A stretch of DNA of 64,000 bases from Psammoneis japonica (Eukaryota): NCBI GenBank assembly GCA_008632985.1, contig QPGO01000047.1:1-64000 (forward strand), given 5' to 3'. Both the position numbers and the translations under genes were made by a program. The first letter of the stretch is position 1. Each line of letters begins with the position of its first letter. Below, piece after piece: positions 2,449-64,000 of the stretch. The notes beneath the pieces are model-generated. The model made no database searches, was not told where the DNA came from, and worked only from the letters and a program-made list of their open reading frames with translations.

Positions 2449-2508
2449 ACACACAACATCACAGGTGTTTTCATGGCTGGAAAGAACCTTCATGTGTGGC
2501 AAACAAGA

Positions 2509-2618
2509 AGGGGTGAGTGGACAGCAATGGTGGTGAGCCCATGTGAATGGTGTTGTGAAGTCAAGGGGTGAGTGGTCAGCAATGGTGGTGGGCTCATGTG
2601 AGTGGTGCATTGAAGTCA
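2509..2618 (+). repeat. Imperfect ~55-bp tandem duplication
   Basis: ggggtgagtggacagcaatggtggtgagcccatgtgaatgg... is followed by ggggtgagtggtcagcaatggtggtgggctcatgtgagtgg... Confidence 0.85.
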
Positions 2619-3564
2619 TTTTTTCTGAAAGTTGGCTGGAGAGTGTGTGCACTGAGCAGTTTGAGGTTCCACTCACTGCAGGGTCCAGCAGAAAGATGTG
2701 TTTTTTTTGCAATTTGAGTTGCTTGAGCTCATTTGAGTCAATGAATGCATTGAAAATGAATGAAATGTTGCCTGCATTGGAGACACACCTTGGTGCACAC
2801 CTGGGCATGGTTCTTTGTGGAAAGTTTCTTGTGCAGACTTCACATGTGCTGCTTTGATTTTCACCTCCTGTTTCAAATGCTTGCTTTCCATCTCATCCAG
2901 CTGCTGAAAGCCACCCTCCTGTCACACAGTCTTCACACCTGTCACAGCTGGCAAAAAGCCACATCTCTCACACCTCAGGGTTTTCCACCAACACATGTGA
3001 ACAAATCCAAAGACCAGAGCAATCAAAAGGCATTGCACTCAATGCAATGTCTCTCACACCAATCACATCCATGTGTTGTTGTGCTCAAGAAGTGACACTT
3101 CAAATGCTGGAGTGCAAAACATGACCCTGAAAGAAAGAGAGAATTTGGTGCACTGGCACATTTGCTGGTCCAGCAACAAGTCGAAGGAGCATTCTTTCAG
3201 GCAGGAGACACAAAGCTGGAGTTTCAGAGCTTCTTGTTCAATCTTTGTCTGGCAAATGTTGCAATGGGCTTCAGAGATTGTTCAATGCTGCTTTGGGCCA
3301 TGGAGCCCAACACCCGTGTTTTGCAAAAATCAAATGGGCCCACCACACAGAGTGCTCAGCTAAAGGAAATGGAGTGGAAGGCCACACTGTCATGCTGTTC
3401 TTGGCCAGAGTTTCACCCACCACCTTTAAAAATGAACAGAAAAAGGCTCTGGATCACAATCATCTGCAAGCAACTTGTGGACATCCAGCCAGAACATGCT
3501 GTTGTCCAAAGACCCCACGCACTCTTGTCAGAGTGCTGCTGAACCTGCTGGCACACATGCATGA

Positions 3565-3755
3565 TGCATGCATGACAATGACTGGATTCAGGCCAGTGAA
3601 CTTGAGCAATGCAAAGCACAAGAGTTGATGCCTTGAACTCTTGTGAAAGTGCTGCCAACCTGCCAATGCACATGGCATGTGTGCCTTGAACAGTGGCATG
3701 ACAATGGCTGGATTTGGGCCAGCCAAATTGGGCAATGCAAAGCACAGGAGCTGGC
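3565..3755 (+). repeat. Degenerate direct repeat (~60-bp core, two copies ~125 bp apart)
   Basis: gcatgacaatgactggattcaggccagtgaacttgagcaatgcaaagcacaagagttg versus gcatgacaatggctggatttgggccagccaaattgggcaatgcaaagcacaggagctgg. Confidence 0.7.
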
Positions 3756-5469
3756 ACAGCTTGAGAATGACAATGTGCAGCAACGAACATCTTGGAGGTC
3801 AAACCAGGAATGGCAAAGAACTGCTCCTTGGTGCTTGGGTGAGCAGAGCCAGTGGGACCAGACCAGGCAAAGGAACTGCACCTGCCACAGATTTGTTGTC
3901 ATCTGAATCTCCATTGTTGGGGTTGTGAGCTGTTGCCAAAGCACATGATCATTGTCCTGCAAGCCGGCGTCAGAAGCGTCAGTCTCAACTGGGGGCTTGT
4001 CAGACAACATTCTTTGCAATGGCTCAAATGCAAAACCTTTTGATGCAGTGTGCAGTGAGGTTTTGTTGCAAACTGAAGTTCTCGTTGCACACTGAAGTCA
4101 GCAGCAGAGTGGTGCCAACAAGCAGCTGCAAGAAAGACATTCAAAGTGTGCACACTGCCATCTGGGCAAAGCAAAAGAAGTGGTCTAAGACAGAGCAGCC
4201 AGCAGTGTGTTTGCCCCAGCATGTCAAGATGAGAAAGGTGACACAGCGCACATGCCAGCAATGGCTTTGGTGCTGGCACTTGTTGGGCCAAGAAAGGCAG
4301 CACATGCTGCATGACCCAAAATGGGGCAGTCAGACAGGGCAGCTTTGCTTGGCCAAGAGGAGGCTAACCCAGTTTCTTGTGGTGACAGAGAGATTTGTTG
4401 GGCTCAAGTTGTGCTGCCTTTTGGGTGTGAGATGCTGCTGGTCCAAGAAGGGCCTGGGCTCTGATGCAGAGGTTGCATTGAAATGTGATCAAAAAAGGCA
4501 GTTTTTGGAAGATGTTGGAGACAAGAGCAGGGACATAAATTTGTGTCCCTGGACAAGAGGCCAATGTCACTGGAATGACTGAACATCTCTGGGTGAAGAA
4601 GGGCATTGCGAGTGGCAGTCCAGCGGCGTTGTTCATGCCACACCAGCATTGGAAAAGTTTTGCAGTCTGTTTTGTGGGACTGGTGGTGCAGCCTTTTTGT
4701 TGCCAGCGCACATCAGCTCCAAGATTTCCACATGTTCAAGTTGTGCAGGCATTCTCACAGGTCAAAGGTTTTGGTGGCTCCACAATTTTGAACAATGGTG
4801 GTGCTGCCAACTGACCCAAGTCAGTGTTGGTGATGGAACCTTGCAGATTTTTGCAAGTTGAAAGAGAGTTGGTTGCAACCTTTGGAAATTGCACACATGC
4901 CGTGCAGCAGGGATTTGGTTGCTTTTTCTGTGTGGCAGTGGCCAGAGGGCACACAGCATGGCTTGGCAGCTCATGGTGTCACAGCAGCAGTGCAGCAGCA
5001 GGATGATGCCACCTGCCAAATGACCTGCAGCATGGTGTGTGGCAACTCAGTGCAAGTGGTTGGCTGGAGCAGCAAGCTCATGCACTTGCACAGGACGGGC
5101 ATCTGATGGGGCCCCACACAGATCACAAAAACCATCCAGTGCAACATGAAGTGCGCTGACAGTGAGCCTCCTGCCATTTGGAGAAAGGGCCTCTGGCACC
5201 AGGCAAAGTGACAGTGAGTGATCACCATTCTCCCAGCAGGAGCTTGTGACAACCTTCAGCGGCAACAAGTTTGCTGGTGTGGGATGGTCCTCAAAAAGCA
5301 TCTCAATGAGACATGCACAGCACCATGGGGCAAGTCGCAGTGTCACAGAGGAAGAGATGATGGAAACTGGCAGTCCAAGAAAAAGAAACAGAAATCTCGG
5401 GGATCAACGACGGTCGAGTCCAGCGGTCTTCATGAGTCGAGAGATTGTTTCTGAAAAGCAAGCGCAGTC

Positions 5470-6810
5470 AAAAGCAATCAAAACTGTTCCAAAACAAGAC
5501 ATGGCACGCAGTGACCAACAACTGAACATCTAGAGAGGTGCTTTGCTTTGATTTCTTTTCCGCAACGCTCTGGTTCCTCATTTTGCTCATGAGCCGAATG
5601 TCTTCTTCATCATTGAGCTTTGATTTCAGCATGCCAGCAACAAGAGTGACGTGCCTTGGCTTTCGCCATTTTTCATCCACTCCCGTTGCTCATGACACAC
5701 TCTCGTCCTCGTCCACATCAATTTTCTCGTTTAACTTCAATGGGAATTTGTTTGCAGCTTCAAAATCATTGCGCTTCTTCATCTCGCGCTCCTTCCAGAC
5801 TCCAAAAATTGTAACAAGTTTGTCTGTTGTGAACTCTGGGTTGTTCCAGACACAAACGCGGAGTTGGGTGCAGGTGCAGGGCACAACAATGTAGACATGC
5901 CACGCCGCTGCAAACATCTTGGCCATCAGGAGGACCGGCTGTTCTGTCCACATCACTCTGGGATCGAAGAAACTGCAACACCATCAAAAAGGCAAACAAA
6001 ACAACAAGAGAGCATTCAGATGAAAAGCACTTGCAGTTGTGCATGCTGCCCTTGACAACAGCCAAACTCATGTGCTTTGGGAAGCAGCTCAAATGCACCA
6101 CGATGGAGCACATCAATGACAACTGCACCAGCTGAACACAAGCCCATGATGTGGACGAGGCTGTGACAAAAGCCTGTGCGGCATTTGGTGCAGTGGCCAT
6201 GGTCCAAAATCCCATTCCAAGTGCAACCGCTTCTGGGAGTGGACAGAAAAAGAAAACATTGAGGGCAACCAATGCATGCAGTTTGTCCTGTGCACCTGCC
6301 ATTCGTTTGATTTCGCACTCCTCTTCTGTCCATTGGCCCTGTTGGAGAGCATGGCGGACCATGTTGCGACACTCGTCTCTGGCAAGTTTTTTCGCCAAGG
6401 GAGCAAAGGCGATGCCAAACACACCAAAAAAACACAGGAGTGCTTGAAGTTGACTCAAAATTGGCCATGACTTTGCCCCCGGCGATGATGTTCCCCAATC
6501 GGCTCCGTGCATGATGATTGTGCCGGCAGAGAGGAGACACCAAAAAAGCTTCCCGCGTGTGTGGTGCTGTCATCGTGAACCATCTCAGATGCCGTGTTGG
6601 GCCACCCCCTGAATGTGTTTCGCATGCATTCCGCCATTTTTTCAGCGCTGCTGTCGTCGTCCATCAAGTCAAAGAAGCCAGCTTTCTTCACAATGGAGCG
6701 GCATTTTGGTGAATCCTTGCAGGTGTCATGGCACCACGCTGCACCCCAAAGCGCAATTGCCGATGCAATGTAAACAGCAACAGAGGACGATGTGGCATCT
6801 GCAGTCATGG
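5470..6810 (-). pseudogene. Decayed multi-pass membrane-protein gene of unknown family (CpG partly retained, TpA lost)
   Basis: Overlapping minus ORFs 6455-6808, 5766-6512, 5690-5956 and 5468-5680 join into a protein-like sequence with hydrophobic segments and a charged C-terminus. Frameshifted. Confidence 0.4.
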
Positions 6811-6979
6811 CGATGTTTTTGTGCTGTGTCGTTTGCGACAGGGTGTGTGAAGAAACATGAGAGCGGCAGCGCAGCGCGGATCATCGTCGCGACGATGGCA
6901 GAATTGAAATTTCCGGGATTATTTTTGATCAGTTCAACTGTGCAAGAACGGACGGAAAATCTGGAAAATGCTGTGCATG

Positions 6980-8600
6980 TGTGATGGATGCACGGATGAA
7001 GACTGTTTGTGCATGTGATCTCTTTTGGAAGTGCCTGGCCTTGCACACAGTGCAGTCATGGAAGATTGAGTGCACATCGAGTTGGCTCTTCTTGAGACCC
7101 ACAGCATCCCCCCATTTGCAGCTGCTGCTGTGCTTCTTGAGGGTCATGGCATGTTGGCAGTCTTGAGGGACTTTGCACCCATGCTTGTGGCAAGGCACAG
7201 CACAGAAAGACCACAGCTTGGCTTGGCTGGCCATGCAGAACGCCCCCTTCTGTCATCTTGTGACAGTGTGGAAATGCTTCCAGCCCTTGGTGTCAAGAAG
7301 GCCGCTCTTGTTGCATGTGCAGAAGGTGCAGGTGATGGGATTTTCCTCGTGACAACAGCCAGAGGCTTGGCTGTGATCTTCCCACCACTCTCCCACTTGA
7401 GCATGATGTTGCAGCTTGAACCTTTCCAAATGGGGTCATGACACTTCAGAAAACCTTCATGCAACAAGATGCCACAGAACTTCCCCAGATGGTGGTGTCA
7501 TCATCATCTTCTTCATGTTCTTTGCCATTGTTGACCAAGCAATTGAACTTGGCAAGTTCCAGGTTGTCAACAACTTTGCTGTTGCAGTCTTTGACAGCCT
7601 TCACAGCATGAGCTTGGCGGCGGTTCTTTCCATCCTCTTGTGGCTTCATGAGCAAGGTGCATCTGATGATGGTGTCTCCACAGGATTGAAAACTGGCATC
7701 TTGTGCACCCTGATCTCCCCGTGTGATGAGCCACATTTTGGAGATGTTGTGACAAGATTTGAAAATGGGTGAAGCAGGCTGCTCATCAGGAGGATCAAGG
7801 TGCAAGTTGTGAGCCAAAAGATTGTGGGCAGCAGGATGCATGTCAGACCTGTGCAGAGTTTTCTGGGTGTCATCAGAGATGGAATCTTGAAGGTCATCTG
7901 GTTGCCCACATGTTTGGCGACACCAATGAAATGACCACACAGCTTGTGGCATTCAAACAGCCAGCCAGAGTTGCCAAGGTGGCAGTGGACAGGTTCTCAC
8001 CAACATGAAAGTGCAAGAGAGGGCTGATGTCAAGCAGAGCTGCTCAGAATGTTCACGGGAGTGTGCCAGTGCAGCTTTGCAGGTGCGGCGGCTCAGAAGA
8101 AAGAAGCACATGCACACAAGGGCAAGCAGCCATGTGGAGCCATGGCGACATTGGCCATGTTTTTTGCTGTCTGATGGCAGTGTTCAGCAAAGTTCTGGCA
8201 CAGCTGTTGGCGCTCACTCTGCTGGCTGGAGACAAACAGGGCAGGTGTGTGGGATCCCAACAACCATGTTGCTGATCTTGACATCAGCTTGACTGCTGGC
8301 AAGCTTGGAGGGAGTGCCGCAATTGTTGGCATTGTCTTCAAGAGTGTCGACAAACTCATTGTGATGGTTTTGGTGCCAGCACACATGCCCATGAGACAAG
8401 AGATTCTGCACCCACAAAGAGCTGGGTGCTGATGCAGCTAAAGTCTTTAGCAGGTTCCACTCATGGTGGGCATTGGGGGCCAGGTCAGGAGATTTGCAAG
8501 CACACAGTTTTGAGGGTGGCCACCTGACACACCCCCAACACCAAATCATCAGCAGGAGCCACTTTTCAGCACATCAAAGCCCATCCCATCATTTTGACAT
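6980..8600 (-). mobile_element. Ty1/copia (CoDi-like) LTR retrotransposon pol relic (integrase to pre-RT region)
   Basis: EFVDTLEDN..GTPSKLASSQADVKIS and QQLCQNFAEH (integrase). HEGFL..DPIWKGSSCNIMLKWESG.ITAKPL matches the diatom copia WKGSxYNVxxEWExGEIT motif. HKHGCKVPQDCQHAM..KWGDA matches YKYGYEVPRDYxHA. Confidence 0.8.
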
Positions 8601-36525: not shown

Positions 36526-36967
36526 AGGCGGAAAGAAGTCAGATTCTCTACTAGCTACAGTCTGCACAAACGTAAACTCCATGATATTTGTTGGAGCATA
36601 TCGGTATTTTGTGGAGCTCTAGAGCTCGTTTCAGACGTGTGAAGATACTACATATTCATTCAATCGGTCCTGTAGATGTCTATAAAAAGTTTGTGACATC
36701 TTTCGTCATATTGATTCCTTTGGTTCTGTAGATGTTTATATCATTTTTTGTCACATATTCTCCTATTCATTCCGTTGAATACTTCATGTTCAGTGTTTCT
36801 GACTTTCCCAAATTTTTGCTAACGGTGTGCGTTGACCGAGACCGTTGGACCGTTGGGAAAGAAATTTGAAACTCGTCCTCACATTTTTCTCACGATTTGC
36901 TCATTTTTTCTTTTCACGACACACTGAAAAAGAAAAAAAAGTGGACATTGCGTTACCCATCGTCAAG

Positions 36968-39628: not shown

Positions 39629-39796
39629 GAACGCGATCGGCAGGCACTCGAGAGCAAGAGCGAGACTCTATAGATTTTGAAAGAAAAAAAAAACAGCGCT
39701 CTGTGACTTACGTAATACATTTGAATGATACTCCTTGCTCTATTCAGTACCGTTGTAAACCTAAGTATATCTCACTTCGCCTTGGTGGTAGAAACT

Positions 39797-46895: not shown

Positions 46896-47699
46896 GGCAA
46901 AAAAATTCAAATTGCAGTTGCTTGTCATCTCACTCTATAGTTTTCTTGTCTTGCGTCTGTATCTGATCTGCAGATAAAGAAGAAAGGATTGGAGTTAGAA
47001 CCCGGGTAAGACCGATCTATGGAGATAAGAAATTGTGATTCTAACACCCATTCTCTTTTCTGTTGTGAAACCAAATTGCAGCAGAATAAGTAATCGGTAG
47101 CAACGCTTGTCGCAGCAACGAAAGTGAAACGCGTGAACGTCCAACGCGCCTCTTTCCGTCCAATCGTCTGAACGCGACAATGGCCCAAGCATTGACAAAG
47201 AAGTAAAGGCATGCTCAGTGCCGAAAGCTCAATAATTTAACACGAAAGAAGAGGTAACCATTCGCTTCTGCCGAAATCATGTGTCACAGCTGTCGCTGTC
47301 CCACTCGCCTTCAGGTTCTTTTTTTGTGTGTGTGCGCGGTGTTCATTTTGTGTTGTCTGCCGATGCGATTGATTCTCGTTTGTGTAACAGGGCAGTACTC
47401 GTTCGCTCTCTGATGGTGTTCTTTTTGGGACGCACTTAACAAAAGCTGTCACGGGGCTATTAAAAATGATAAAATCTACAGCGAGTAAACGTCATCGACA
47501 TTCTAAACACTTATTGTGCGTAGATTGTGGTATCGATTCCACTGAAAAGAGAGAGAAAAATCGAACCCGCCTTTTCCCATTGTTCCCTTGCATCGCATCC
47601 AATGTTTTAAATGCTTGTGTCATCATCACGCCATCTTGCCTCCTGCGAACGACCCACATCTGATCCAATGCCTCCACTTCCAAGTTCACCCCCATGCAC

Positions 47700-50600
47700 A
47701 CTGACTGAGTGAGGCACCAATTCAAGAGAGAGACACTCCATCGTGCGCTCTGGCGCATCTGCCACCTCGGCACACACCACACGCTCATCCTCCAGGCAAC
47801 AATGCTGGCATGTCACACCAGTTGTTGCACTGCCAGCAATGGCATTGACTTTGTTGGCAAGAGTGATGTGTCCCATGGAGATCTTGTTGTTGTTTTGAGT
47901 TTGTGTCTGGGGTGTCACACAGCATCTGCAGCCACATCTCCCACACAGCACTGCAGCGCTGGAGCCAAGAAGAGCCCAAAGAGGCTTGCTCACCAAGATT
48001 GAGCCCTGCCATCTTGTTGGCAGCACCAGAGCCATGCCACAGTTGCAGTGATCACTTTGAATGAGACAGGAGACATGCAACAGAGAGCCCTCTTCTTGGG
48101 GCAAGCTCAGCCCAAACCTGGTCAAACTGCAAGATTCAGCCAGTTTTGCAAAGAGCAAAGAAGCCCCCAACCAGCGTGCATGCACTGGCAGTGTGCAAGG
48201 CTGAGATTTGGCTCAAGTGCAGCCTCTTCCTGAAGGGAGAGGCTTGCAAGGACATTGCTGCACATGAGTTTTTTGCTCTTCCCTGGCATTCCAGCCACCA
48301 TGCCAGTGCCACCTGTTGAGTTTGCCAGGCTTCCAACTGCACCCATCCAGCAAAACAGTGCTTCCACAGCCTGGCCAGTTAGAGGGCCTGAAACTCTCAA
48401 ATGACTTTGTCAATGCCTTGTCCCACAGGAGCTTCAACAGCTTTTTCTGCCAGTGGATCCACTGCCTCCAACTCCTGTCAACAGCAAACTCCTGGTGGCA
48501 CTGGCCCCAAAATGAGCACAAACCCTTTCCCCAGACTCAGGTGCTCCAACACATCAGCTCCCAACCCCTGTGCACTGGACTGTCATGGTTGCACTCACAG
48601 CAATGTAAAAGATCCATCACCTGCTCTGTCAAGTCCGTGGCTGAGCTCCTCTGGTGCTGCAGCAACAGTGGCAAAACAGTGCCATCAGACCACCATGCCA
48701 CCCCAAGTGAGCAATTCCTCCTCAACAGGCCATGCCCTGGCAACAACTGTGCCCCCTGCCACCACCTGCATTGGCCATTGACCTGCTTTTTTGAAGACAT
48801 CAATGACCTTGCAGTGTGCCTCTGAGCTCATCTTCACCAGCTGCTCTGACCTGGCACTGTGGTGCTGCAAGGCAGCAATGATCCATCAGTGCTTGTGCCA
48901 CAGCAGGATGCCATGTGGTCAGTTGGTCAGACATTTGCTGTGCAATGGGGTCCAAGGATCAGGCCCTCCTTGCACCCCAATCAACATGGACTTCCATGAT
49001 GCCCAGCAAATCCATCACTTCAAGAAACAGGATTTGCCCCAACTGCTGCATCAACCCCCACAGCTGTCATCCTGTGGATCATGCATGCAGCCATGCTTGG
49101 CTTGTGCACCAGGAGCCCAAAAGCCACCACCAATGTGTGTGTTGGCCTGGCTTCATTTGACTGTGTTGGCAAATTTTGAGACAACTCTTTTGAGTGCCAT
49201 TGCGCCAATGTGCCATTTGCCATCAGCAAGCCTGTGAACATCAGTTTGTGGTGTGGAGTCAGAACACGCCCCACATTTCACCAGGTGCATTGCAAAAAAA
49301 GCATCAAAATGAGATGACATTTGAGTGGTGCCAGTGCTGGATTGAAGTTTCAATTTGAGTCACATTTAACCACTGACTGGAAAACCCAATGTCACAAGGA
49401 CTCCAGCAATGCACAATCACATGCAGGGTTTGCGTGAGATGTCACAATCACTGTGTTGCCATTTTCTTGACAAAATCTGCAGGAAACAAACACTCAAGGA
49501 TGCTCCAAACAACTGCTGTGTGCAGACTGCAGTGCACACCTGTTGCACTCTTGTTGCAAGATGTTGAAGCATGCCTGCATGCCAGTTTGGAGTTGCTTGA
49601 TGGCTGGGCCTCAAGGCTGCCCATTGTTTCATTGCATCTCATCCAATGATGCAAAAATGCCTGTGCCGCCATCTCACCCCCCATGCTCCTCCTGTGAGTG
49701 AGCCCACTGTGTGCATGTGCTCAGGTCCAATGCCTCTGCCTTCAAGTTCACCCACCAGCAGTGCACCAACTGAGGCACCCAGCAATGCTCTTCATTGTCA
49801 ACAGCCCATTTTTGTTTCCTCCTCCTGCCTTTGTGCTTGTGGGCAAGCCCACCTTTTTGCCAGTGCATGCTCCAATGAGCACTTTTTCAAATGGACCCAC
49901 CACATCTCATTTGGGCAAGCCAATGTGAGTGCACATCCTCTCAAATTGTCTGTCAAAGCTTCTGACAAAGTTTCCTCCAAAGGAGGGTTTGGCAATCTTC
50001 CAGGTGTGCCTCTGTGCCAGCTCTGTTGCTGACCAGAAATCTCACCACAAACCTTGGGCATGCTGTTGATGCAAGCAGATGTGCTGCTGCCTCATGCTGC
50101 TCCTGACACTGATTCAGCAGTGCAGGCGCAACCAACATGTCAACATTTCTCTTGTGGCTGTGCACTTGAACCACTCTGCTGGTGCCTGCACTTTCATTGA
50201 GAGATGTTGTGGACAGTGCTTCAACAGCAGCAATCTGACTTTTTGTGCACAAGCTGACAAGATGTGACAATTTCATGCAGGAACTCAAGTTTTTCCTCAG
50301 GTGGCATGCTCAACTCCAGTGGGCAACATTGGCTTTGTCAGCAAGAGTGGCATTTTCTCCCCTGGAGATCTTGCTGTCGTGTCTGAGAAAAACTGTTGTT
50401 CTTGGCCCAGCTGTGTGTGTGCTGCTGCACATCCGCAGTGCATTTGCCAGACCTTGCATCTTGAAGACTGCGGTGTTTTCAAAAAAGACAAGAGATTGGA
50501 GCACAGAGAGCACTCTTGGTGGGCTCAGCCCAAGCTGGGTTGAGCCACAAACACTCCAGTCAACAATGATGGTTGCTGTGTTTGGGGCCAAGCTTGAGAC

Positions 50601-50700
50601 AAAACTTCAAAGCTGGCTGACTTTGGCACTCTGCAAATGTGAAATTGAAGCCATCACTGCAAAACTTGCACCAGTTGTCATGTGATGCAAAATCTGCACA
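47700..50700 (-). mobile_element. Non-LTR retrotransposon (LINE) 3' relic: post-RT, RNase H-like and C-terminal regions
   Basis: APNT..IV..VCGSTQLG (cf. IVYGSxxLGG), LNQC, and RGWELMC...FWGQCHQEF...WIHWQKKLLKLLWD (cf. IGW..L..G..S..W...Q..Y...W..KLI.LLW of diatom LINEs). Heavily decayed. Confidence 0.5.
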
Positions 50701-51429
50701 ACTTGATGTTTCATGTGATGAAGCTCGTCATGACACATCAGGCACAGCAACAACATCTGCTAAAAATGCCATTTGGTGGCAGCTCAAAAACTCCTGCAAC
50801 AGCAAGGTGTGCACCAAGGAAATCAAAAAATCTGTTGTGATGCCACAGGTGAAATGTCACATGTCAATTCTTCACCAACACACAAACACCATTAGCCACA
50901 TTCTGACACCTGCTGTGTCAAATCCAGCAAAAACAAAAACAAAAAGAGCTTCAAGTGCAAAGTGCAAATTTCTGGCAGAGAAGAGATTTGTGGTGTGGGT
51001 GGTTGGTCTGACAACAGTGCAGCTGATGAAGTGAGACATCTGGGGACATCTGCAGTTTGTCATCGATGTCCAACATGTGCGCCGAAGACATGCTGCTGTT
51101 CCAAAACTTTCTTGCAGAGTGCAGAGTGATGGCTTCACTCTGAAAACTCTCTGGCTTTGCTGACACAAATGAGTGCAAAAAAATGAGATTTTTTGCTTTT
51201 CAAAGGGACCCACAGATTGCAGAATTGGGGAGAGGGGGGGGGGGGGGGGGCAGCAAGTCATCATCATGCAGTTGGGAGTGAGCCAGGTTCTTTTCCCCCT
51301 CTGAGCCAGCACCCTCTTGAGTTTGCATGCACCTGCCTGCATTGAAAGCCAACTTCCTGTTTGTGGTTGCTTTGTGGCTGCTCTCTGTTGTTTTGCTTGC
51401 TGCAGCATGTTTGTTGCCCCAGACATGTG

Positions 51430-51610
51430 CCAATGTTTCTCAGTGCTGCAGTCAAGTTGAGTCAATTCATTGGAGAGCCAACATGAATTCAGAGTGCAGC
51501 AACAGCTGCAGTCCACAACAACCAAGCAAAACAGCAACACAACTTCCCTCTTTGCAAGAAGCATTTTTTGAACATGCACGGTCTCAAGGAAGTCCAACAT
51601 CTGCTCAGGG
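51430..51610 (+). pseudogene. Decayed paralogous fragment of the 42076-43236 gene
   Basis: tccacaacaaccaagcaaaacagcaacacaacttccctctttgcaagaagc...ggtctcaagg-aagtccaacat aligns to 42978-43066. Confidence 0.9.
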
Positions 51611-51799
51611 ACATTCCCAAATCTGCCATCTTGAGACTGCTGCATTTGTGAGACTGGCCAGACTGGACTGGCCCTGGTGATGCAGTGCTTGAGCAATTTT
51701 GTAAAAAACCAATTGTGATTGTTTCTGCAAGATCTGCACAAGTGGTTGCAGTTGTTTCACAAGAACCTGACATGACATCAAGATGACACCCCATGCAGT

Positions 51800-54670
51800 G
51801 CCGGCCATTGGGATTCCATCTCAGGATTCCCTTTCAAATGCGTTCACTCGTGGCATTTGCTGCAACCACACACAAGAATGACCACAACAACAACAGCACC
51901 ATTGTTGTCAGCCAACTCTACATTGCATCACAACAACAAGTCCAAGTTGCTGAGAGCCCCTGTTGCCAATGCCACAGCCACACTTGGGATGGCTGCAATG
52001 GGGGCTTCCAATCAGCTCACCTCTGACACTTTTGCTCAGCAGTCAAGATTGGTGAGAGACATGCATGATGACTTGGGCGACAAAGATGACAACACAAAGA
52101 AAGCAATGAAGGTGCAAGTTTCAATTAAAACCTTGTCACGCCTGCATTTGAATTTCTGCCTCTGACCCTGAGTTTCAACCAAACTTTTTGCAGCAGACAT
52201 GAGAGCCAGTTCTGTGCAATGTGTGGCCACAAGCACGCCACATTGGGAGACACCAGGTGCTTGGTTGATGAGCAAAAAGCCTTCATTTGCCTGTTTTGTT
52301 GAGCCTTTTGCCCACAAAAGAAATGGGGCAGGGCAAAGAAGGGAGAGACCAGTCAGGCCAATCTTTGATTCTGAGCTCTTGTTTGAAATGGTGACAGCCA
52401 GCAATCCCTTGACTGCAGCGGACATTCCAAATGAGACTCAATTGCTTGACCACACAGAACCTGGTGTTGGCAAACCCAACAAGCTCAGCCAGTGGCATGT
52501 GGTCAACCAGGCTTGTGCATCCCTTCGATGACTGTTTGTTTTTCAGCTTGAAATGCATGGCAGAGATCCTGCTTTGTGTCACTCCGTCATGAAAATTCCA
52601 GCCACATCAAATGTCTCAAGTGTCTTGTGAAGTCCCCAAAACCACAAGAGAAATGGAGACAGGTGAGTTTTGGCCAAAATGTGTGGCACATTTCTGTTTA
52701 AAACAGCCAAGCTGTGCTGAGTTGTCCACCTCAAACATGGTCAGGTTTCTGGCAATGTGTTGCCCCACCTGGCCCATGAGCATTTCCCAGAGTTGGAGGA
52801 GGCTTGCTGGGGACATTCTTCTGGGACATTGCTCAATGGAACAGCTGCTTTGTGCAACCATTTCTTCATGCTGTGCACAAAACAAGCCATTTCCCACTGG
52901 GAGTCTCTCCTCAAGGCTCTGACCTGAGCGATCTTTGCAGTTTTGGTTGTCGGGCAAGGAAAGAGGAACAGGCCCAGCTGTTGCTCATCATGAAGATGTT
53001 TGCTGGCAAAACCAATGGTGAAAGCATGTGGTTTGGCCATGTCATGCAACACAGAGATGTGAGAATAAACTCCATTGGTGGATTGGGTCTTTGTCTGCTC
53101 GGTGCAACCATCCAACCACTTCAATCAAACAAACTGTTGCTGCAATCATTTTGAATGCAAGATGCTTTGAGATCAGCAAAGAATGGGAGAAGATTGACCT
53201 AAAAAGGAAGGAAACATGGTGGAACATCAAGCTCCTTGTGGACATGCAGAAGGCTTGCACATCTTCTGGAGACAGTGCCAAGTCACCTGCTGACATGCAG
53301 CTCATGTCTCCCTTGTCTTGTGTTGCTTGGTTTGATCATTTGAAGGAACGGCTTGACCTGTTCATCAACTGCAGTTTGCACTTTGGACATGTTGGAGGCA
53401 CAGTCAAGTTAGAATCAGAGGAGTTGGAGTCTTCTTGTCTCATCAAAGCTTTTGAAAATTGAAACCCAAGTGTGTTTGATGCCCTTGAAGGTGAGTCGCA
53501 GCACTTGTGGTGTGGCCTGTTTTTCTTTTAATTAAACTCACATTTTGTTTCAATTGAACAATGTGAGGCAATGAGGGTTGCAGCTGGCTTTGCAAAGGAG
53601 CCTGGAACCTGATGAATTGCAGAAGGAGATCTTTCCTTGGCTTGAAGGCATGGCAGAAGGAGTGTCTTGCAGGGAGCACCCCACATCACATGCTGCCTTT
53701 GTGGAGCTCTTGAGACCATTGCGTGTTGTCATCCTCCAAGATGTGGCTGCTTTGATGCTGCTCGGCTGCACCCACACCCTGCTCAAGCTTGCTGTTTTCA
53801 TGTCAGCTGGATTTTTGTCATTCAAGGAAGAAATGAAGGTTTGCTTGGAAAAGCCACCCCCTTGCCCTGATGCTGGACAAATCTGTGGGGTGTCAGAGCA
53901 GACTCAAAACTTGCACCAGGACAACTGATGCAGCCACCAGCAGCTGTTGTCTGCAGTTGATGGGTCCTTTGAATGCAACAGAAACACAATGAACAATTTT
54001 GCCTTTGCCACTGGAAACTCACACAGCCAGAAATGAGTTCAACAACTTGACCCTGGAGCAGTCTCCACTGACTGGGCAGCAAACACACCAGCAATTGGTG
54101 AGTGCTGTGCATCATCTTGCTGTTTCAATCAAATGTCATTTTAACCAAACATTTGCTGACCAAATTGTGCATTCAATTGAAACCATTTTCAGCCACAGGC
54201 ATGATGCCAGCAACAGGCATGCAGTCTCCCAGTCCCAGCTTGAGTGGCTTTTGACCCCCCAAGTGGAAAGACACAGATCTTGCCAAGATGCACAACTGCT
54301 TCAAGGGAAATGCTCCTCCTTTCACTGCCCGCAATGAAATGAGGCATTTGGAGGACAGCAGGAAACCATGGCATTCAGCATGGGAAGACAAAGACAAAAA
54401 TGCTCTCCATCATTGGAAGCAGCTGATGAAAATTGTGGACAAAGTGCTGGTTGAAAACTCTGCACACCTCCAAGTTCTGGTCATTGCCAAGTTGAACTCA
54501 TTTTGCATTGCAGATTGCAACAAGGTGTTGACAACCACATTGAAGAAGTTCCCTGAACAACATTGGCACTTTGCGGGCCATTTCCAGCTGGCAGCAGTGC
54601 AAATCAAGGAAAAATGGCCAACAACCAAGGGGAAGTGGCCAACATTTGGCTGCAACAAAAACACAAGTTA
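51800..54670 (+). mobile_element. Crypton-type tyrosine-recombinase DNA transposon relic (NDC10_II-like)
   Basis: ESLLKA.LSDL, GKTNG..WFGHVMQHRDV...GGLGLCLL..RF, WWNIKLL, LHFGH (HxxR with CGT>CAT), ELQKEIFPWL, and FVELL..LRVVILQDVA. Confidence 0.7.
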
Positions 54671-55229
54671 AAGGGTTTCATCGAAGCTCACTCTTGGTGC
54701 AATTCTTGGTGCATGTTCTTGGAGCATTGCACACTTTCCAACTTGGTGCCTCTTTTTACATTTCAACAAAACCCATTTGTGACATTTTAAATGAAGCCAA
54801 CTTAAATTTTGGTTGAAACATGATCACAACACATTGCACATGTTTGAACTCGATGCTGCTCTCCTTCAGAATGTCCGCCACTTTGCATTGGATTTGGCCA
54901 TCTGGCTTGCCTTTGCTGTCCCAACTGCAGTCATTGAGAACATTGTGCTTTGTGTGAGCAAACCATGTGGTGCAGTTTTTGTTGAAGCCAATGGCTGTGG
55001 CACTCTTCTTTGCAACAAATGAGCCACACGTCTTGTCAAATTTGGTGCGGTCCTCCTCAGGGACTTGGAAACACAGGATGGGGGGGGGGCACTTCTGATG
55101 TGCTGGAATCAAATGTGACCCTCACATTCTGCAGAAGGTTGGGCAGTGCATTGCTGCTCTTCTTCACCTTGCAACCTTCCTCCCAGGTGACCATGGGCCA
55201 CTCAATGCTGTCCAGTTTTTGAAACCCAC

Positions 55230-55620
55230 AAGTGGATTTTGGGGGGGTTGCTGTTGAAGGTCTTGGCTGCATCGCTGCCTCTGGCCTTGACAGTGCCCTT
55301 TTTGGCCTTCTCACCAGCACTGCCACCCTTGGTGCTGCTGTCCTTGCTGCTGCTGTCTTTGTCAGTGGCCTTCCTGGGCTTGGCGGCACTGCCACCCTTG
55401 GCGCTGCTTTCCTTGGCAACACTTTCCTTGGCAACACCCTTCTTGGTCTTGGGGCTGCCCTTGCCACCCTTTTTGGCCTTTGCTGCACTTTTCCTGCCAC
55501 CCTTGGCAACACTGTCGGCCTTGGCACCACTGCCCTTGGCACTGTCAGTGTCCTTGGCAGTGCCCTTCTTAGCCTTGTGGTGCGCAGCAGTGTGGGTGTG
55601 TTCTTCCTTGGCAATGTGGC
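55230..55620 (-). other. Lys/Ala/Gly/Ser-rich low-complexity coding-like repeat (AKGG/KAKKG), relic or gene
   Basis: KAKKGTAKDTDSAKGSGAKADSVAKGGRKSAAKAKKGGKG... is open for ~130 codons and built of gccaagg repeats. Confidence 0.55.
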
Positions 55621-57859
55621 AGCATTGCCAGGGACAGCCTTCCTCTGTGCACCACACAGAGAGAGAAAAACGTTTTTTCAATGACCTTGGCAACAAGTGA
55701 TTGTCACTTGTTTGTTGAGAGCCAAAGATTGCACAAACTGGTTGGATCTTTGCTCTCACCATTGACCAAATCAACATGTGTCAACAAATGTCACAACTTT
55801 TTGGGATCGCCAAAACAGGCACATGTTCAGTCACATGGGAAGCTCTGGGTTTGTGAAAAAAAAAGAAGAGGAAAGGGAGGAGGGGAGAGAGAGTAGAGAG
55901 GCCTGCATTCAATGTGCACGCATGATGGCCACATGTCTCACGCACCTCAGATCTCAGACAAAACTGCGACAAAAAAAAAACAACCATGGTGGCAGCAACA
56001 GCCACCACTTGATTTTGTTGCCAAACCTTTTTCTGCACAAAAAATGAATGTGTCACATTCTACATCTTTCTCTGATGAGTGCATGCAACAAAAGAGATGC
56101 AAGAGAAAATCCAAAAACAGACAAAAACTCCCTTCTGGGATTTTGCTGCTGTTGGTGCTCTATCCTCACAACTTGCGCATTTCAATTTTTGTTCACATTG
56201 GACAGATTGGAGAGCACTCTTGGAAAACTCTGTGTGCACATGTGGAAGACAAGGTTGCCCTCATCTCCAAATGTTGTGGGCCAGCACATGGCTGGTGTGG
56301 GAGTCAACTGTGTGGGAGGAGCAGCTTCTGGGTGGCACAGGAGTCATCAGGGCATTGGAGTGGCCAGACGGCATGGCAGTTGGTTTGGCTGGAGCAGCCA
56401 GTTTGCACAGGGAGTGGGTGGTGTTGGAGCAGCTGTGCAGCATGGCAGTTGGCAGTGTTGGAGTGGCCAGGTGGTGTGGCAGTTGGTGGCATTGGAGCAG
56501 CCAGGCAGATGGCATTGTGGTCAGCATGCAAGTCTTCAGAGTGGCCTTTGGGGGTTGTTGGAATTGGTCAGCATGGCAGCACCACCAGGCAGCACTGTCA
56601 ACACATGACAGGCAATTCACAATCTGCCACTTTTGGAAAAGTCCATGCACAAAAGGCAGACAAGGTTGACCTCATCTCTAAAAATCATGGGCAACTGCTG
56701 AAGTTTCTGACTGCAGCAGCAGCACCTTGGCATTTTTTCTGCAATGATGTTCATGTGGCATGAGATGCCGGAGGCTCCCGGCCACACATGTCTGGTCTTT
56801 AAATGGCTGCCTTTGATGGAGTCATTGGCTTGTCAAGGTCATTGGCATTGGAGCTGTGAGGGAGAGGTGGCATGAGAGTCAGTGGTGCTGGAGCAGCCAG
56901 CTGCTGGTGCTGGGAGAGAAAAAAGAAAGATGTGTGTGTGTGTGTGTGTGTGTTTGGTGCCACAGCTTGGGTCCATGTCACCAACTGGGAAATCCAGGGT
57001 TGGCGCCAATGTCATTCTCTGCATGAGTGCATTTCCACCATCACAAGTCCACCACTGTGATGCATTTCCAGCATTGTGGCCATTTGGTGCTTCCCAGTGT
57101 GGCACCCTGTCCTCAACCAGCATGGTGCAGTGCTCCGTGCTGTTGGGCTGTGCCATGCAGCTGTGATGTGGACCTTCTTTGTGGCTCAAACTACACCAGA
57201 AACAGCACTGCACCTGACAAGTGGAAGCTTTTCTTTGTCTGCTTGCTCAGTTTGGTGGAGGATCAAGCACTTGGCTGTGCCACCTGACAGCTGCCAATTC
57301 CAACACAGCTGCATTTTGAGCTGACAATTGATGGCTCAGCACTCTCCTGCAACTCCAAATGGCTCAGACCTTTCTGGTGGGTTTGAAAGAGAGGTGCAGA
57401 AGGTTCACACACAAGCTTTGTGTGTGTGTGTGTGTGCTCAGATCTTTTGTGTCTCCCCACTCACAAGAATGACTGTTCTCTCTGCACCAGTGCTGTTGTG
57501 AGTGGCGGCAGTTTGCTGTGTGGTGTGAGCTTTGATTTTCTGTCTTTAACCTTTTTGCAACATGCCAAGTGAACAGGTGCTGTGTTCTGGAACATCTGAC
57601 AATGCTCGCCAAGTGGCCCTGCCACTCACCACTCAATGTCCACCAGATCACTCCAGCATGCATTCATGCATGTAAAGTCATGCAAACCATGCTGGTTTTG
57701 GTTGTTTTGGCATGCTTTTGCAAATCTTGGAAGCACTTCCTGAAACATCTTAGCTTTGCTGCTGGCAACCTGACAGGAATGCCATCCCTTCCACCTTGCT
57801 CTGCAAGGAACTCCAAAGCTTCAGACATGGCACTCTCTGCCATTGTGACAGGTGGCTCA

Positions 57860-59204
57860 GAAGGACACTCAGCACCGTCGCTTTTTGATGCCATTGCTGA
57901 AGAAGCAATGCCACGATTGGACAGTTTCAACCAGCAAGAAACAGCAAACACTGCACGGGCCTGTGCTGCTGTTGGACACCCAGCGCTGTCACTTTTTGAT
58001 GCCATTGCTGAAGAAGCAATGCCGCGATTGGACATTTTCAACCAGCAAGAAATGGCAAACACAGCATGGGCCCATGCTGCTGCTGGACACTCAGCACCAT
58101 TGCTTTTTGATGCTCTGTTGCCAAAGAAGCAATGCCGCAATTGGACAGTTTCCACCCGCAAGTGACAGCAAACACGGCATGGGCCTGTGCCACTGTTGGA
58201 CACTCAGCACCGTCACTTTTTGATGCTGTTGCTGAAGAAACAATGCCACGATTGGACAGTTTCCACCCACAAGCAACAGCAAACACTGCGTGGGCCTGTG
58301 CCACTGTTGGACACTCAGCACCGTTGCTTTTTGATGCCATTGCTGAAGAAGCAATGCCAAAATTGGGCACTTTTAACCCCCAAAGCCCAGCAAGCATGGT
58401 GCGGGCCTTTGCCGCAGTTGGACAGTCAATGCCGTTGCTCTTTGATGCTGTTGCTGAAGAAGCAATGTCAAGATTGGGCAATTTTGCCCCCCAAAGCCCA
58501 GCCAGCACAGCATGGGCCCACTGTGCACTGCTGCTGGGCATTCAGCACCGTCGCTTTTTCATGCCGCAGCTGAAGCAGCGGCATCGAAATTGGACAAGTT
58601 CACCCCACAAGGCCTTGCAAACTTGATGTGGGCTTGCGCGGTTTGTGACCAATTCAGTGAAATTCTAATTGGAGATGCACCACGCATTGCGCACGCTTCC
58701 CATTCCACTGCCGCCTCCTTTTCTGATGAAGAATTGTGTCAACTCCACCAAATTCATCTTTGGCATCTTGAGAAAGGGAAGTCATTGTTGCTGCTTGATT
58801 GTGACTTGCAACAGAGGTGTCAAGAGGCTTTTGTTGGAAAAACAAGGCAATCCATCCAAGCTGCAAAAGGATGTTGTCAGGACACTTTTGGACCTTGGAC
58901 TTGACCCCCAAAGGAAGAATTCCAGATGGATGTGGGTTGCAGCTTGGGTGCAGTGGTCAGGCATTGCAATCGAGAAGTTGCCATTGAAGTGGATGGGCCA
59001 AGCCACTTTCTTTCTGATCAATCACTGACTGGTTCTATGATTCTAAAACATCGCCAGCTTGCAAGATTGGAAAATTACAGCGTGGTGTCAGTGCCTTGTT
59101 GGGAGTGGAATGCTGTGGCAGAAAAGGACCCAAATTTAAAGTCAGTTCAAGAATGGCACAAAAAGCACTTGTTGGAAATCCTTGGTCAAGCGATTGCAAG
59201 TTAG
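57860..59204 (+). pseudogene. Helical-repeat (37-aa HPR/OPR-like) + RAP-domain RNA-binding protein pseudogene
   Basis: About seven 111-nt repeats (GHSAPSLFDAIAEEAMPRLDSF.PQ..ANTAWA.A), then RAP VAIEVDGPSHF...TGSMILKHRQL..VVSVPCWEW. Frameshifted. Confidence 0.9.
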
Positions 59205-60030
59205 GTTGAAAAAAAAAAAGAGGAAGGGTTGTCTGTCAGCTTCTCTCTGCTGTGCACTGATGCAAAAGAAACGTTCGCACCACAGTTTTTGTTTGTGGCA
59301 CAAGCAGCCAAGCTTGTCAACCAGTCCACGCATCGAGTTTGGCTCTGCACTCTTGTGCGTTTGGCCATGACGACTCTCATTGCAGCCGCATTGCATTCGT
59401 AGCATGCAGACTTGAGGCCTGGTTTGTTGGGCTCTGTGTGCTTGGCTGCACAGACAATTGATTTTGAACACATGTGTTGCAATGCGGCTTGAACCTTTTG
59501 AGAGGATGACATTTGCAACAGACATCTGGCTTCAGAAAAATTGCGTTGGCCACTCAAAGTGCCAACATGTGGATTGCACTGGTTCTGATTCTCCTCTCTG
59601 CTTGTGGCAGACATGACCTTCATGACATTGGCACACAAAGCAACCTCTGCCTGCAGTCTTCATCCAATGCGAGCAAAGCAGGTCAAATGAAATTGTCATC
59701 CATTGAACAATGGGGTGGCTTGTCAACGCAAGTTTTCACCTTGCCATTCAAGTGTCCAACGCAGTTTCACAAAATGCTGTCACATTGTCAAAAGGTCACA
59801 GCGGCAACAGCATTCTCCACCTGGACGCAATGTTCAAAGCTGTTCCCAAAGCAGGGCACCTGAGCACCTCAATTCCAACAGATGGTTGTGACTCGCAGAG
59901 ATGTTTCTGCACCAAGCTGGACCAGTCAAACACTTTGCTTTCCCTGCCAACTCGATCCAGCCAAGTGACAATCACACCCATGATGAAAGAGCAAAATTTT
60001 TCAAAGAATGAGAACAAGGTGGAACAGCCC

Positions 60031-60340
60031 TCAATCATGTGAAGCACGGGACACGGACTCCAGCAAATGCTTTTTGCACCATTTCCTGCCAGACTTCATG
60101 GACGAATCTTTTCCCAACACTTCATCCCATTCCCAATGTGGACCTGACAAAAGAGTGTAGACTTCTAGTTTCAAAAGCTGGCAACATTTCAATTTGGTGG
60201 ACCCAGTTGGTGATCGATCATGGATTGATCTCAAGACCATTGCAAATGCATCAATGGACATGGAGTGGGACCCTGTTGCAACAAATTCAATGGGAGGAGA
60301 GCCAAGGGCAGAGAAGAGGCAGCAATGTCCCCTGGTCATT
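60031..60340 (-). pseudogene. Second RAP-domain relic, inverted relative to the first
   Basis: TGSTKLKCCQLLKLEVYTLLSGPHWEWD...WCKKHLLE, paralogous to ...PCWEWN...WHKKHLLE at 58990-59200. Confidence 0.75.
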
Positions 60341-60689
60341 TGGATTCTCCCGTTTGCAAATGTTCATCATGAGCATTGTCCAATTGATGGGAAGAAATGG
60401 CACAAAGGCTGTGAGAAAAGGAGAGTTTGAAGGGAAGACAAGTTCTCAGGGGTGGTGTTGATGACCAGTTGGGAGGAAATGTTTGCCACACATGGGACAA
60501 TCATTTCGCATGGCAAAGGGGGGCACCATTGTTCATGTTGCAAAAACAAGTGAGATGAAGATGAGTGGGGCAAGCCAAGTGGTAAAAACAACATGTGGCA
60601 GGTGACAAGATTGCATTGAACAAGTCAACTTGCATGTCACCATGCAAGATTGCACCTTGGTTTAATGCACAACATCAGTTGTCTGCACA

Positions 60690-61600
60690 CCGGCATGTGG
60701 TGCTTGCACAAAACACTTGACAACACAAGACAAATCTGACCAGATGTGGTGGCTCCTGCTCTGTGGCACTTGTCATGGGGAAGAAGCACACAGCTTGCCC
60801 TGTGCTGACAACTGGCAGAAACCACCAGTGACATCTTGTGTGATGTGAGATTTCCACAAGAAATGGAGATGTGCAACATGACAGAAGCACATGGGGTTCA
60901 AATTTGCAACCCTCATGATGTGGGTCAAATGCAGCCAGCACATCAACACACCCACACTCAGCAGAATGAGTGCAAGTCATGTGAACTTGTGTGGTGCACA
61001 CTTTTGGGTCTCATGTGTCCTGCTGGTGCTGCAGTCTTGTGTGTCACAAGATGTTGCTCTGGCATCTGCCAGCTGTCCCAGCTTGCTGCTAAAGTTTGAA
61101 GAATGTCAGACAAGTCCTTTGCACACTCCTTTCTTCATTGGGAGAAACAAGAACCCCAAGACAGCTGGCTTGCATGACAAAAACAAAGTCATTGCTCCAG
61201 AAGCATTGCTTCAGGAGCATTGCTGCAGAAGCAGGATGGCTGCTGGCATCATCATCCCAGAGAGACACAAACTGAGGTTCCGTTGCCAATGTGACAACAG
61301 CTGGCACAGTGTGCAAGCTGCAGTGTGCTCCACATGCTCCAAACGCAAAGCGCATCAGAAGACAAAAAGACAAAACCAGAAACATGGGAAGTTGCCAGAA
61401 AAATCAGCTGAAGTTGTGCCATGGGAAATCCTGTTTGCAGATGCTGCAATGAGAGGTTGCACTCACTGTCAAGCAAAAAGGGAAAAACTGCTGCATTTGC
61501 AGGCAGTTGTGGTGATTGACCCCACAACAGGATGGCTTGTTGTTGCCAAAGAATGTCTGGTGGCTCCATGGCCCTTGTCACGGAGAAGCATGTGGTGCAC
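60690..61600 (+). mobile_element. Ty3/gypsy LTR retrotransposon relic (integrase zinc finger and core start)
   Basis: KVIAPEAL.Q, W..V...V..CS..K.HQKTK..KHGKLPEKSAEVVPWEILF.D, and LQAVVVIDPTTGW (cf. KYGKLP.K.AE..PW..LCVD...LTMIDPATGW). Confidence 0.75.
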
Positions 61601-64000
61601 CACCCCACTCTGACAACTGGCAGATGCCAGTGATGTCTTGAGCAATGTGAGACTCCCACAAAGGGAGATGTGCACAATGAAAAGCACATGCTGTGCAAAC
61701 CCGTGTGACTTGCACTCATTTTGCCAGCAGATGTGTGCTGGCCCAACTCAACTGCCCCCTGCCTGAAGCCATGTCTGGTGAGCAAATGCTCTGCTCATGC
61801 TGTGCATTCTGCGGCATTTGCCCACAGCTGTGCCAACTCAGAAACAGCTCTCACTGTTGCCATTGACCACAACAACCTTTGTGGCTGCTCAATGCCCAGC
61901 TCTAAATTAAGTGCACAGGGCAAGACAGCTGGGAATGTTTGCAGCAGATGGCTTTGAGATTCAACACACCTGGCATGATGCTTCAAACAATGCTCAGCTG
62001 GCTGGGTGCTTGCACACTGTCCTGACAAGAAGAGCTTCAGTCTCTGTTTGCCCACTTGCAAAAAAGTGGCAAGCACCATGACAGCTGCTCTCACTGCATC
62101 AATTTGCTGCAATTTTCTTTTTGTTGAACTCTCAAAGCACCTGTGCTGTTGAGATGATTGCTGCTGCCTCATTTTGTGTGTTGGCTGCAGGTGCATTTTG
62201 GCATGGCTGGGGGAAGGGGGGGGAGACATTGTTGCTTCACCTCTGAGAAGTGAGAAGGCTTGGGCATCATCATCAAATGGTGCAGCAGCCACAAACCCAA
62301 CTGCACAGCATGCACCAGCTGATGATTGGCCATGTGATGGGGCAGCACCTCTTGTCTGCAGGGGCACAGGGTTCACAAAGAATGAGCTGCATCACTGTGT
62401 TGGCTGTCTGTGCCCAAATGCACCATGGCTTGAAATGAGCATGACAGCATGGAGCACTGCAGGCCAGAGTTTTTGTGCTGCACAAAGTTTTGTGCACATG
62501 TCAGCTGGCTCTGCAATCAAAGCAGACAGAGCACAGCAAGATGACAGTGCATGCAGCATGGCCTGACTCCACAGCAAGCATTTGCAGCACACAGCAGAGG
62601 AGTGTGGTGCATGCTGCAGGTGTGTGCTGTGTGTGTGTGCAAGTGTGGCAGGGCCACACTCATGTGTGCACAAGTGTGGGGCAGTGGTGCTGGGCCTGAT
62701 GGCAGGGAACAGCAACAATGTTGTGCCAAGACAGTTCCCCTGATTTTTCTTCCTGCTGACAACATGAAAGCAATGGAGCAGCCATTGCAGCACAAGGCAA
62801 TGGCACAGCACATGACACATGCTGTGGGGTGTCATCCGACCCAGCAACAAATGGCAAACCTTCCAGACCTGACATGTGGGACACTCTCCATGTGACATTG
62901 GCCAGCAGATTCTGCATGTGCAAGCTCCACAGTTCAAACATCAGTTGACAAACCAACAGACTTGTTTTTGAAATTTAAACAAACAAGCAAAGTTTGCAGC
63001 ACAGCTGCACCTCTTCACCACACTGAAGTTGTCAAACAGATCACCCAACAACTGCAATCTAAAGTGTCACAGAACACCACCAAAGTTGCACAAAAATGCA
63101 CGTGCACATGGCGCATCTTAAAAAAACACAAACATCCTTGAAACTCAGCAGCAGCATGTGATGTCCTCCCACCTGCAGCTGTTGCTTGGGCAACCAGAGC
63201 CATTGCCATTTTTTGCAAAAAAGGCACAATGACAGACCTCCAATGAAACAAAAATGGAGGAGCCACAACTCTTCTGCTGGAGCACATCAGCTTTGCTGGC
63301 AGATTGCTGGCAGGTGGAGCCTCAGCCAGCCACCAGTTCAGCAGCAGATTTGACTTGCTCCTGCAGGATCACAACTCAAAATTATGAGCTGGAGTTTGGC
63401 ACCTGCTCACATGCATTGATGCTGGTGCTGGTTTGACAGGCTGAAAAAGCTGGTGTGTGTGATTGTTGACAAGCCCTTGAAAGAAATGTCTGCAACAAAA
63501 ATTTTGCAGTCTTTGGCCCTCCATCTGTGAGGACAGCAGCACAAACTCATCAGCTGCAAGGTCCAAATGTCATCAAATCAAGTTGGTGTGGTGGTGGGCA
63601 CATCTGCCACATCACAGAGCCTGCCACAGCACATGCTGTTCAGGCTGACAACTGGCAAACACTGGCAATGATTTGTGTCACATGACTTCCATGTGGCAGA
63701 AGCCATGCAATCTAAAAGCGCACATTGTGCAAGCATGAATGACTCACACTCATTCTGCTGAGCAGTTTTGTGTTGTCTGCATGTTGCATGGCCTCCTGCT
63801 GACACAAGCAAGAAGAGGAGCTGGGGTCTGTTTGCCTCCTGTGTGCAGAAGTGTGGCAAGGACCATGGTGACAACTGAGTCTGACTGCCCTGATTTTCTT
63901 GCAGCATTTTCTTTGTGTTGAACTTGCAATGCTTGCATTGTCAATGGTTGTTGCTGTTGCTGCTGTTGCACTGGGGGGCTTGGGGATGACAAGATGCGAC

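Follow-up and report, generated by a model that had tools for sequence, protein, structure and literature searches.

The TA dinucleotides (TpA) of a gene relic near the start of contig C49 of Psammoneis japonica have probably been rewritten by a TA-specific mutator, which would work in the same silenced blocks as the decay of methylated CG (CpG) and about twenty times faster than it, the relic having likely been silenced later. The existence of a fast TA-specific process is in itself well supported, by the composition of the relic, by the direction of its codon changes and by a series of copia retrotransposon copies of graded age.

A CG-retaining, TA-erased island

The window analysed here begins with the first base of contig C49 in a 91-Mb assembly and is 64 kb long. 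A taxonomic check with a neighbouring gene returned matches to marine eukaryotes, none of them named as a diatom. Its gene-rich middle (9.7-47.4 kb) has observed/expected (o/e) ratios of 0.98 for CG and 0.58 for TA, and in the two blocks at 1-9.4 kb and 47.6-64 kb TA is gone, CG mostly gone and CA/TG near twice expectation, with CG o/e of 0.10-0.13 and TA o/e of 0.03-0.04 in the older depleted DNA. At the block edges (9300-9700 and 47400-47800) the zone without TA comes 100-200 bp closer to the genes than the zone without CG, as if the TpA mutator reached past the CG-decayed zone. The highest TA values of the window (o/e 1.5-1.6) occur at 36836-39700, where a 930-residue open frame without Pfam match, probably encoding a repeat-rich protein, is accompanied by long frames overlapping on both strands.

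An earlier sequence-only reading of the window had pointed to 5400-6970 as a stretch with many CG and few TA. Indeed, these 1571 bases contain 69 CG (o/e 0.72) and 6 TA (0.06), and the two CG-rich motifs quoted in that reading are both present, near 5402-5421 and 6870-6899. At gene-rich rates 94.0 CG and 58.3 TA would be expected (deficits with P=0.004 and P=3e-18, respectively), and in gene-rich DNA none of 23 equally long windows falls below 0.82 for CG or below 0.37 for TA. With the rates seen in the remaining TA-less DNA the expectation is 10.3 CG (excess P=2e-33) and 3.9 TA (P=0.20), so that the TA of the island stands at the floor. Roughly 90% of the TA steps it once had have become TG or CA, and its CG is down by roughly a quarter to a third. 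The edges are sharp, CG/TA o/e passing from 0.15/0.03 (3900-5397) to 0.72/0.06 (5398-6995) and back to 0.17/0.01 (7052-8445), and they coincide with a gene plus ~100 bp upstream. Terminal repeats or a target-site duplication around the island are not evident (short imperfect matches only), and matches elsewhere to the left flank (3900-5420) are all short.

A short-read contig that spans 2459-10500, perhaps from the source sample, differs from the assembly by two letters and two gaps, and within the island by one letter without indels. This match rules out a long-read assembly error and, the sample possibly being the same, nothing beyond that. Among the differences listed between the assembly and near-identical short-read contigs, every substitution of the left block is at a YpR step (706-707 CA/TG, 1898 TG/CG, 2210 TG/CG, 6305 CG/CA), a hint that decay is still going on in the sample, and none of the three substitutions between assembly and short-read contigs in 44001-64000 lies at TA or CG. 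One-base indels between the two occur at 3181, 7348, 48208, 51587 and 54656; part of the apparent frameshifts in the assembly may thus be sequencing errors.

Table 1. Features of the window discussed in the text, with positions on the 64-kb stretch.
Feature	Positions	Strand	Evidence
TA-erased block holding the island, start of contig C49	1..9400	.	dinucleotide o/e
CG-retaining, TA-erased island	5398..6995	.	71 CG (o/e 0.72), 6 TA (0.06); flanks 0.15/0.03 and 0.17/0.01
Pseudogene of a rare predicted membrane protein, no Pfam family	5470..6860 (ends approximate)	-	phmmer, tblastn
CG in assembly, CA in short-read contig	6304..6305	+	CpG differing within sample
Old copia retrotransposon relic, TA and CG both gone	7052..8445	-	~65% identity to copia family; CG 0.17, TA 0.01
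Second TA-erased block	47600..64000	.	dinucleotide o/e
Frameshifted RAP-domain gene relic, ~111-bp repeats	57900..59400	+	PF08373 match 58983-59117; alignment to 9 paralogues

The island holds a pseudogene whose product looks like a membrane protein. It carries frameshifts near 6555 and 5975 and an in-frame TGA at 5690-5692, and its tblastn segments (6787-6545, 6691-6521, 6554-5949, 5974-5702) alternate in frame. An exhaustive HMMER search of 1.84 billion representatives yielded two homologues only, P0001 (phmmer E 2.8e-14) and P0002. Pfam gave nothing above cut-off on three island frames, P0001 or P0002; a word-indexed protein search returned no match for the relic and for P0001 only itself; a search of the Atlas brought no usable match, and a metagenome scan returned solely the contig of P0001. 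An identity as Mpv17/PMP22 was rejected, the island being absent among 28 PF04117 matches and tblastn against 25 fetched loci giving no match below E 0.1. Searches for a second copy in the genome itself gave self matches only, and at 80% likeness over 5251-7000 a single contig was found, both results being lower bounds; the gene is apparently single-copy, with no paralogue found, and no parent copy of the island was found for direct dating.

The homologues give the direction of change. Eleven Tyr of P0001 align to the island. Six of these positions are Cys (TGY) there and one is His (CAY), with no Tyr left (BLOSUM62, P=9e-7); the remaining four are Trp, Trp, Met and Phe. All five aligned Trp of P0001 are kept. 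P0002 has two Tyr, one retained in the island and one Cys. Across the 461 codons of the whole relic there are 2 Tyr, where the neighbouring genes would lead one to expect 12. These replacements mean that TA was turned into TG or CA, and the 6:1 ratio of Cys to His fits a preference for A before a pyrimidine. Among 12 aligned Arg, five have become Gln or Trp and two are still CGN (P 0.003-0.014, a weak result at 33% identity); together with the CG/CA difference within the sample this indicates that CpG decay is already under way in the island.

Chance, codon usage or assembly error as sources of the pattern have a negligible probability. The island derives from coding sequence, in which TA is scarce (0.58), but its TA deficit relative to gene-rich DNA has P=3e-18; moreover, the coding sequence of P0001 is itself ordinary (TA o/e 0.57, CG o/e 1.03), the replacements of Tyr are polar, towards Cys and His, and the short-read contig matches the island.

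Order and pace of the two losses

The sequence-only reading took the losses of TA and CG to be uncoupled, a view against which tight co-depletion would speak. We drew 379 windows of 1 kb from 38 arbitrarily placed stretches of 10 kb, leaving out one short locus and one window containing N, and found an L-shaped cloud rather than tight co-depletion. TA is lost alone in 38 of the 127 windows with TA below 0.2, which keep CG of at least 0.6, but the reverse never occurs: none of the 231 windows with TA of at least 0.3 has CG below 0.4. Uncoupling thus holds in one direction only; the losses are nested, TA first and CG later. Over all 128 bins of 500 bp in the 64-kb window CG and TA are correlated (Spearman 0.73), and in the 50 TA-less bins the coefficient is 0.10 (P=0.50), CG being overdispersed (P=3e-37) and TA not (P=0.37).

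The pace can be read from the copia family matched by the relic beside the island, a young copy of which carries RVT_2. Fifty-one copies were aligned to one young copy, two duplicates and five loci closer to the old copy of the window being left out; the young set of 34 consists of this reference and 33 copies 96.6-98.3% identical to it. A TA column is one where some copy still has TA, and the cells counted are not independent events, as the copies share ancestry. With these provisos, the young copies keep TA in 1115 of 3014 cells (37%) and CG in 9647 of 10109 (95%). TA loss amounts to 51-63%, against 0.1-0.4% for other transitions, and the ratio of TA to CG loss rates is 16-22, varying with the choice of TA columns. 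TA, TG and CA occur together in 77 of 93 TA columns, which points to recurrent hits on both strands, and only 6 of 2241 cells at TA columns are anything but TA, TG or CA. Double changes between TA and CG run at 0.0 per pair, and new CG arising from TA was not found in the young copies. The very recent copia burst (L066, L114-L142) comprises no fewer than 40 copies that share 98-99% identity along 1 kb, in which only ~37% of TA sites are left and frames are long through loss of TAA and TAG.

CG decay has begun in the same copies: CG columns are hit in 212 of 311 cases, as against 22 of 388 for CC and 5 of 198 for GG, an excess of the kind produced by methyl-CpG deamination, and already ~10 times background in the youngest. 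Both processes therefore act simultaneously on the same DNA. CG is kept at 67-85% in the fourteen middle copies and at 9-38% in the three old ones; the more a copy has diverged privately at non-YpR sites, the less of its CG survives (Spearman -0.77 over the 51 copies). Binned by divergence, as the sequence-only reading had proposed, the median TA/CG o/e is 0.18/0.92 in young, 0.09/0.80 in middle and 0.09/0.50 in old copies. The claim that TpA loss is faster than, or independent of, CpG decay accordingly stands as to speed, given the rate ratio, but not as to targets, which are common to both, no sampled window with TA of at least 0.3 having lost CG only.

The island (0.06/0.72) lies on this copia time course, and since a single course suffices, independence of the targets is not needed. 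At 73% of CG kept, the copia clock would predict TA at its floor and a silence ~7 times longer than that of the young copies. A 'younger' target, as the island had been called, is likely on this fit, the dating resting on the very quantity to be explained. Rather improbable, in our view, is an island of the same age as its flanks that was little methylated, the whole block having been swept by a methylation-independent TpA mutator. The dispersion of CG among TA-less bins would fit such a history, as would island edges that follow the gene and its upstream ~100 bp, and the lack of effect of local CpG on TA loss. Against it, the island itself bears marks of CpG decay (Arg to Gln/Trp; 6305), CG survival in copia tracks divergence, and the frame is still recognisable with three breaks only.

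The RAP relic was thought to resemble the island. It does so in TA, nearly gone (0.07), but more than half of its CG is gone as well (0.42). Over an aligned kilobase it has TA 0.09 and CG 0.37, against 0.35-0.60 and 0.75-0.96 in eight intact-looking paralogues. It keeps 2 of 10 TA and 6 of 20 CG shared by paralogues L034 and L031, and 3 of 9 TA and 6 of 23 CG shared by L030 and L034, while L034, taken as control, keeps 5 of 6 TA and 12 of 19 CG. The similar site-wise losses (2/10 and 6/20 kept) count against a faster loss of TA; the relic has gone further down the path on which the island lies, and it makes a poor case for CG retention. L030, the ninth paralogue (G000:C136:54497-57643), is part-eroded over the aligned kilobase (TA 0.19, CG 0.64); its repeat part looks TA-eroded and its 3' RAP part retains several TA. 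Pfam searches of 82 frames from the TA-less blocks gave one match over cut-off, NDC10_II (PF16787) at 53575-53925, which we take to be possibly a Crypton-like tyrosine-recombinase relic.

A candidate TA-specific mutator

The claim that TpA loss is no by-product of CpG decay is borne out by a flank rule of its own and by its lack of relation to CpG distance. In the CG-poor old DNA of the window TA survives at 1 of 1389 RTAY sites, 15 of 2805 mixed sites and 40 of 1274 YTAR sites, i.e. purine-TA-pyrimidine is erased and pyrimidine-TA-purine spared; CG in the same flank contexts obeys no such rule, its fractions being nearly flat (0.018-0.033). Among 89 copia columns TA survival is unrelated to the distance to CpG (rho -0.01), and no strand-coordinated runs were found (concordance 0.562 vs 0.559 shuffled). 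Taken together, the missing distance effect and strand runs argue against repair patches at methyl-CpG, and the latter give no sign of a processive single-strand deaminase.

Methylation could also act through mismatch repair at deaminated methyl-CpG, an error-prone fill-in of the Pol eta type restoring the CG and mutating nearby TA. Such an origin, which we regard as very unlikely, would account for the common targets and the strict nesting, and AA>AG changes (24 of 6341 cells) are slightly more frequent than GA>GG (10 of 9105; P=0.0007, the cells not being independent). Pol eta, however, hits AA within a few-fold of the TA rate and makes transversions. Here TA is hit more than 100 times as often as AA, cells other than TA, TG or CA are nearly absent from TA columns, neither CpG distance nor strand runs leave a trace, and RTAY is still erased in DNA that is poor in CG.

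We favour a TA-specific mutator with the following course. Either the gene would have remained active with transposons around it or it would have come in late; a silent domain would then have engulfed it. Inside the silenced block its TA steps would be turned into TG or CA by a DNA mutator, most plausibly an adenine deaminase that converts A to inosine on either strand, site by site, and is recruited by the chromatin state rather than by repeat pairing or methylated CpG. The slower loss of CG would be due to deamination of methylcytosine, and DNA silenced later would then show TA gone and CG partly kept. The targets of the TpA process comprise copia elements, a RAP-gene paralogue and the island gene, for which the search yielded only two homologues.

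As to the enzyme, a DNA adenine deaminase of the TadA/ADAT type is our best guess, held with somewhat less than even confidence. TadA/ADAT enzymes recognise U33-A34, which matches the TA preference. The genome encodes ADAT2/TadA-like deaminases along with several C5-methyltransferases, which the model requires but which are unspecific; ADAT2 homologues are near-universal, so that their presence says little. At least seven open frames resemble C5 DNA methyltransferases (L150-L157, L160-L161), many for a microalga, with broken copies on contigs C297 and C10, and none of the C5-methyltransferase matches was identified as a DNMT5. A likewise very unlikely alternative places the change on the thymine: T at TpA, oxidised or modified in some other way, would mispair with G and give T-to-C, with the same targeting and timing. 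TA>CA and TA>TG are one event seen on opposite strands and either base fits, so that the two chemistries are not separable from sequence alone; modified thymine occurs on the repeats of dinoflagellates. The agreement of the TA preference with U33-A34 recognition speaks for adenine.

Relation to known systems

RIP (repeat-induced point mutation) in ascomycetes is likewise a regional, dinucleotide-specific transition hypermutation that ruins repeats. It can spill into neighbouring single-copy genes, and a similar leakage onto the island from the adjacent copia relic may have occurred. RIP, however, makes TpA from CpA, whereas here TpA is destroyed (0.03-0.06), and the island is without a detectable second copy, homology pairing being not evidently needed. 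In diatoms, CG methylation of transposon islands by DNMT5 is described for Phaeodactylum (PMC9998398). Isolated transposon islands and copia as targets are shared with our case, and the change of CG to TG/CA corresponds to the slower process seen here, but deamination of methyl-CpG cannot turn TA into TG or CA.

The closest parallel is the case of Bigelowiella natans, a distant alga, where, as the main text of a preprint describes, A/T to G/C mutation confined to TpA reaches ~6e-7 per site and generation in viral insertions that are single-copy, and is active in some lines only; the targets are integrated DNA of NCLDV and virophages, and ADAT2 is proposed there as a candidate (Mettrop et al., bioRxiv 10.64898/2026.01.13.699255). 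Both systems show transitions from TpA to TpG/CpA on both strands (the 6 exceptions in 2241 cells being ours), confinement to regions far above background (here with sharp block edges), action on single-copy DNA (here the apparently single-copy island, the searches giving lower bounds) and the TpA-poor, CpA/TpG-rich clusters left behind. They differ in that the B. natans process was measured directly in mutation-accumulation lines and its viral DNA still has a TpA o/e of 0.45, whereas in P. japonica the end state is 0.03-0.06, transposons and host-type genes are hit, and a flank rule and nesting with CpG decay are evident. The words 'CpG' and 'diatom' do not occur in the main text of that preprint.

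A literature search returned nothing joining diatom, TpA and hypermutation, and within the literature searched natural A-to-G hypermutation of genomic DNA appears only in the B. natans preprint, as far as its main text goes. New here is the placing of TpA and CpG loss on one time axis, with the same targets, a TpA loss ~20 times faster and different flank rules. This comparison excludes a by-product of old methylation and offers a dating of silencing, to which the island adds a target that is apparently single-copy, together with a rate estimate obtained independently. We tentatively propose, as a possibility somewhat short of an even chance, a chromatin-guided DNA adenine-editing defence, apart from cytosine methylation, that would erase TpA from anything silenced, unique host genes included, well before methyl-CpG decay shows; TA and CG would then be the two hands of a silencing clock, and the island would document how the sole copy of a gene was irreversibly lost.
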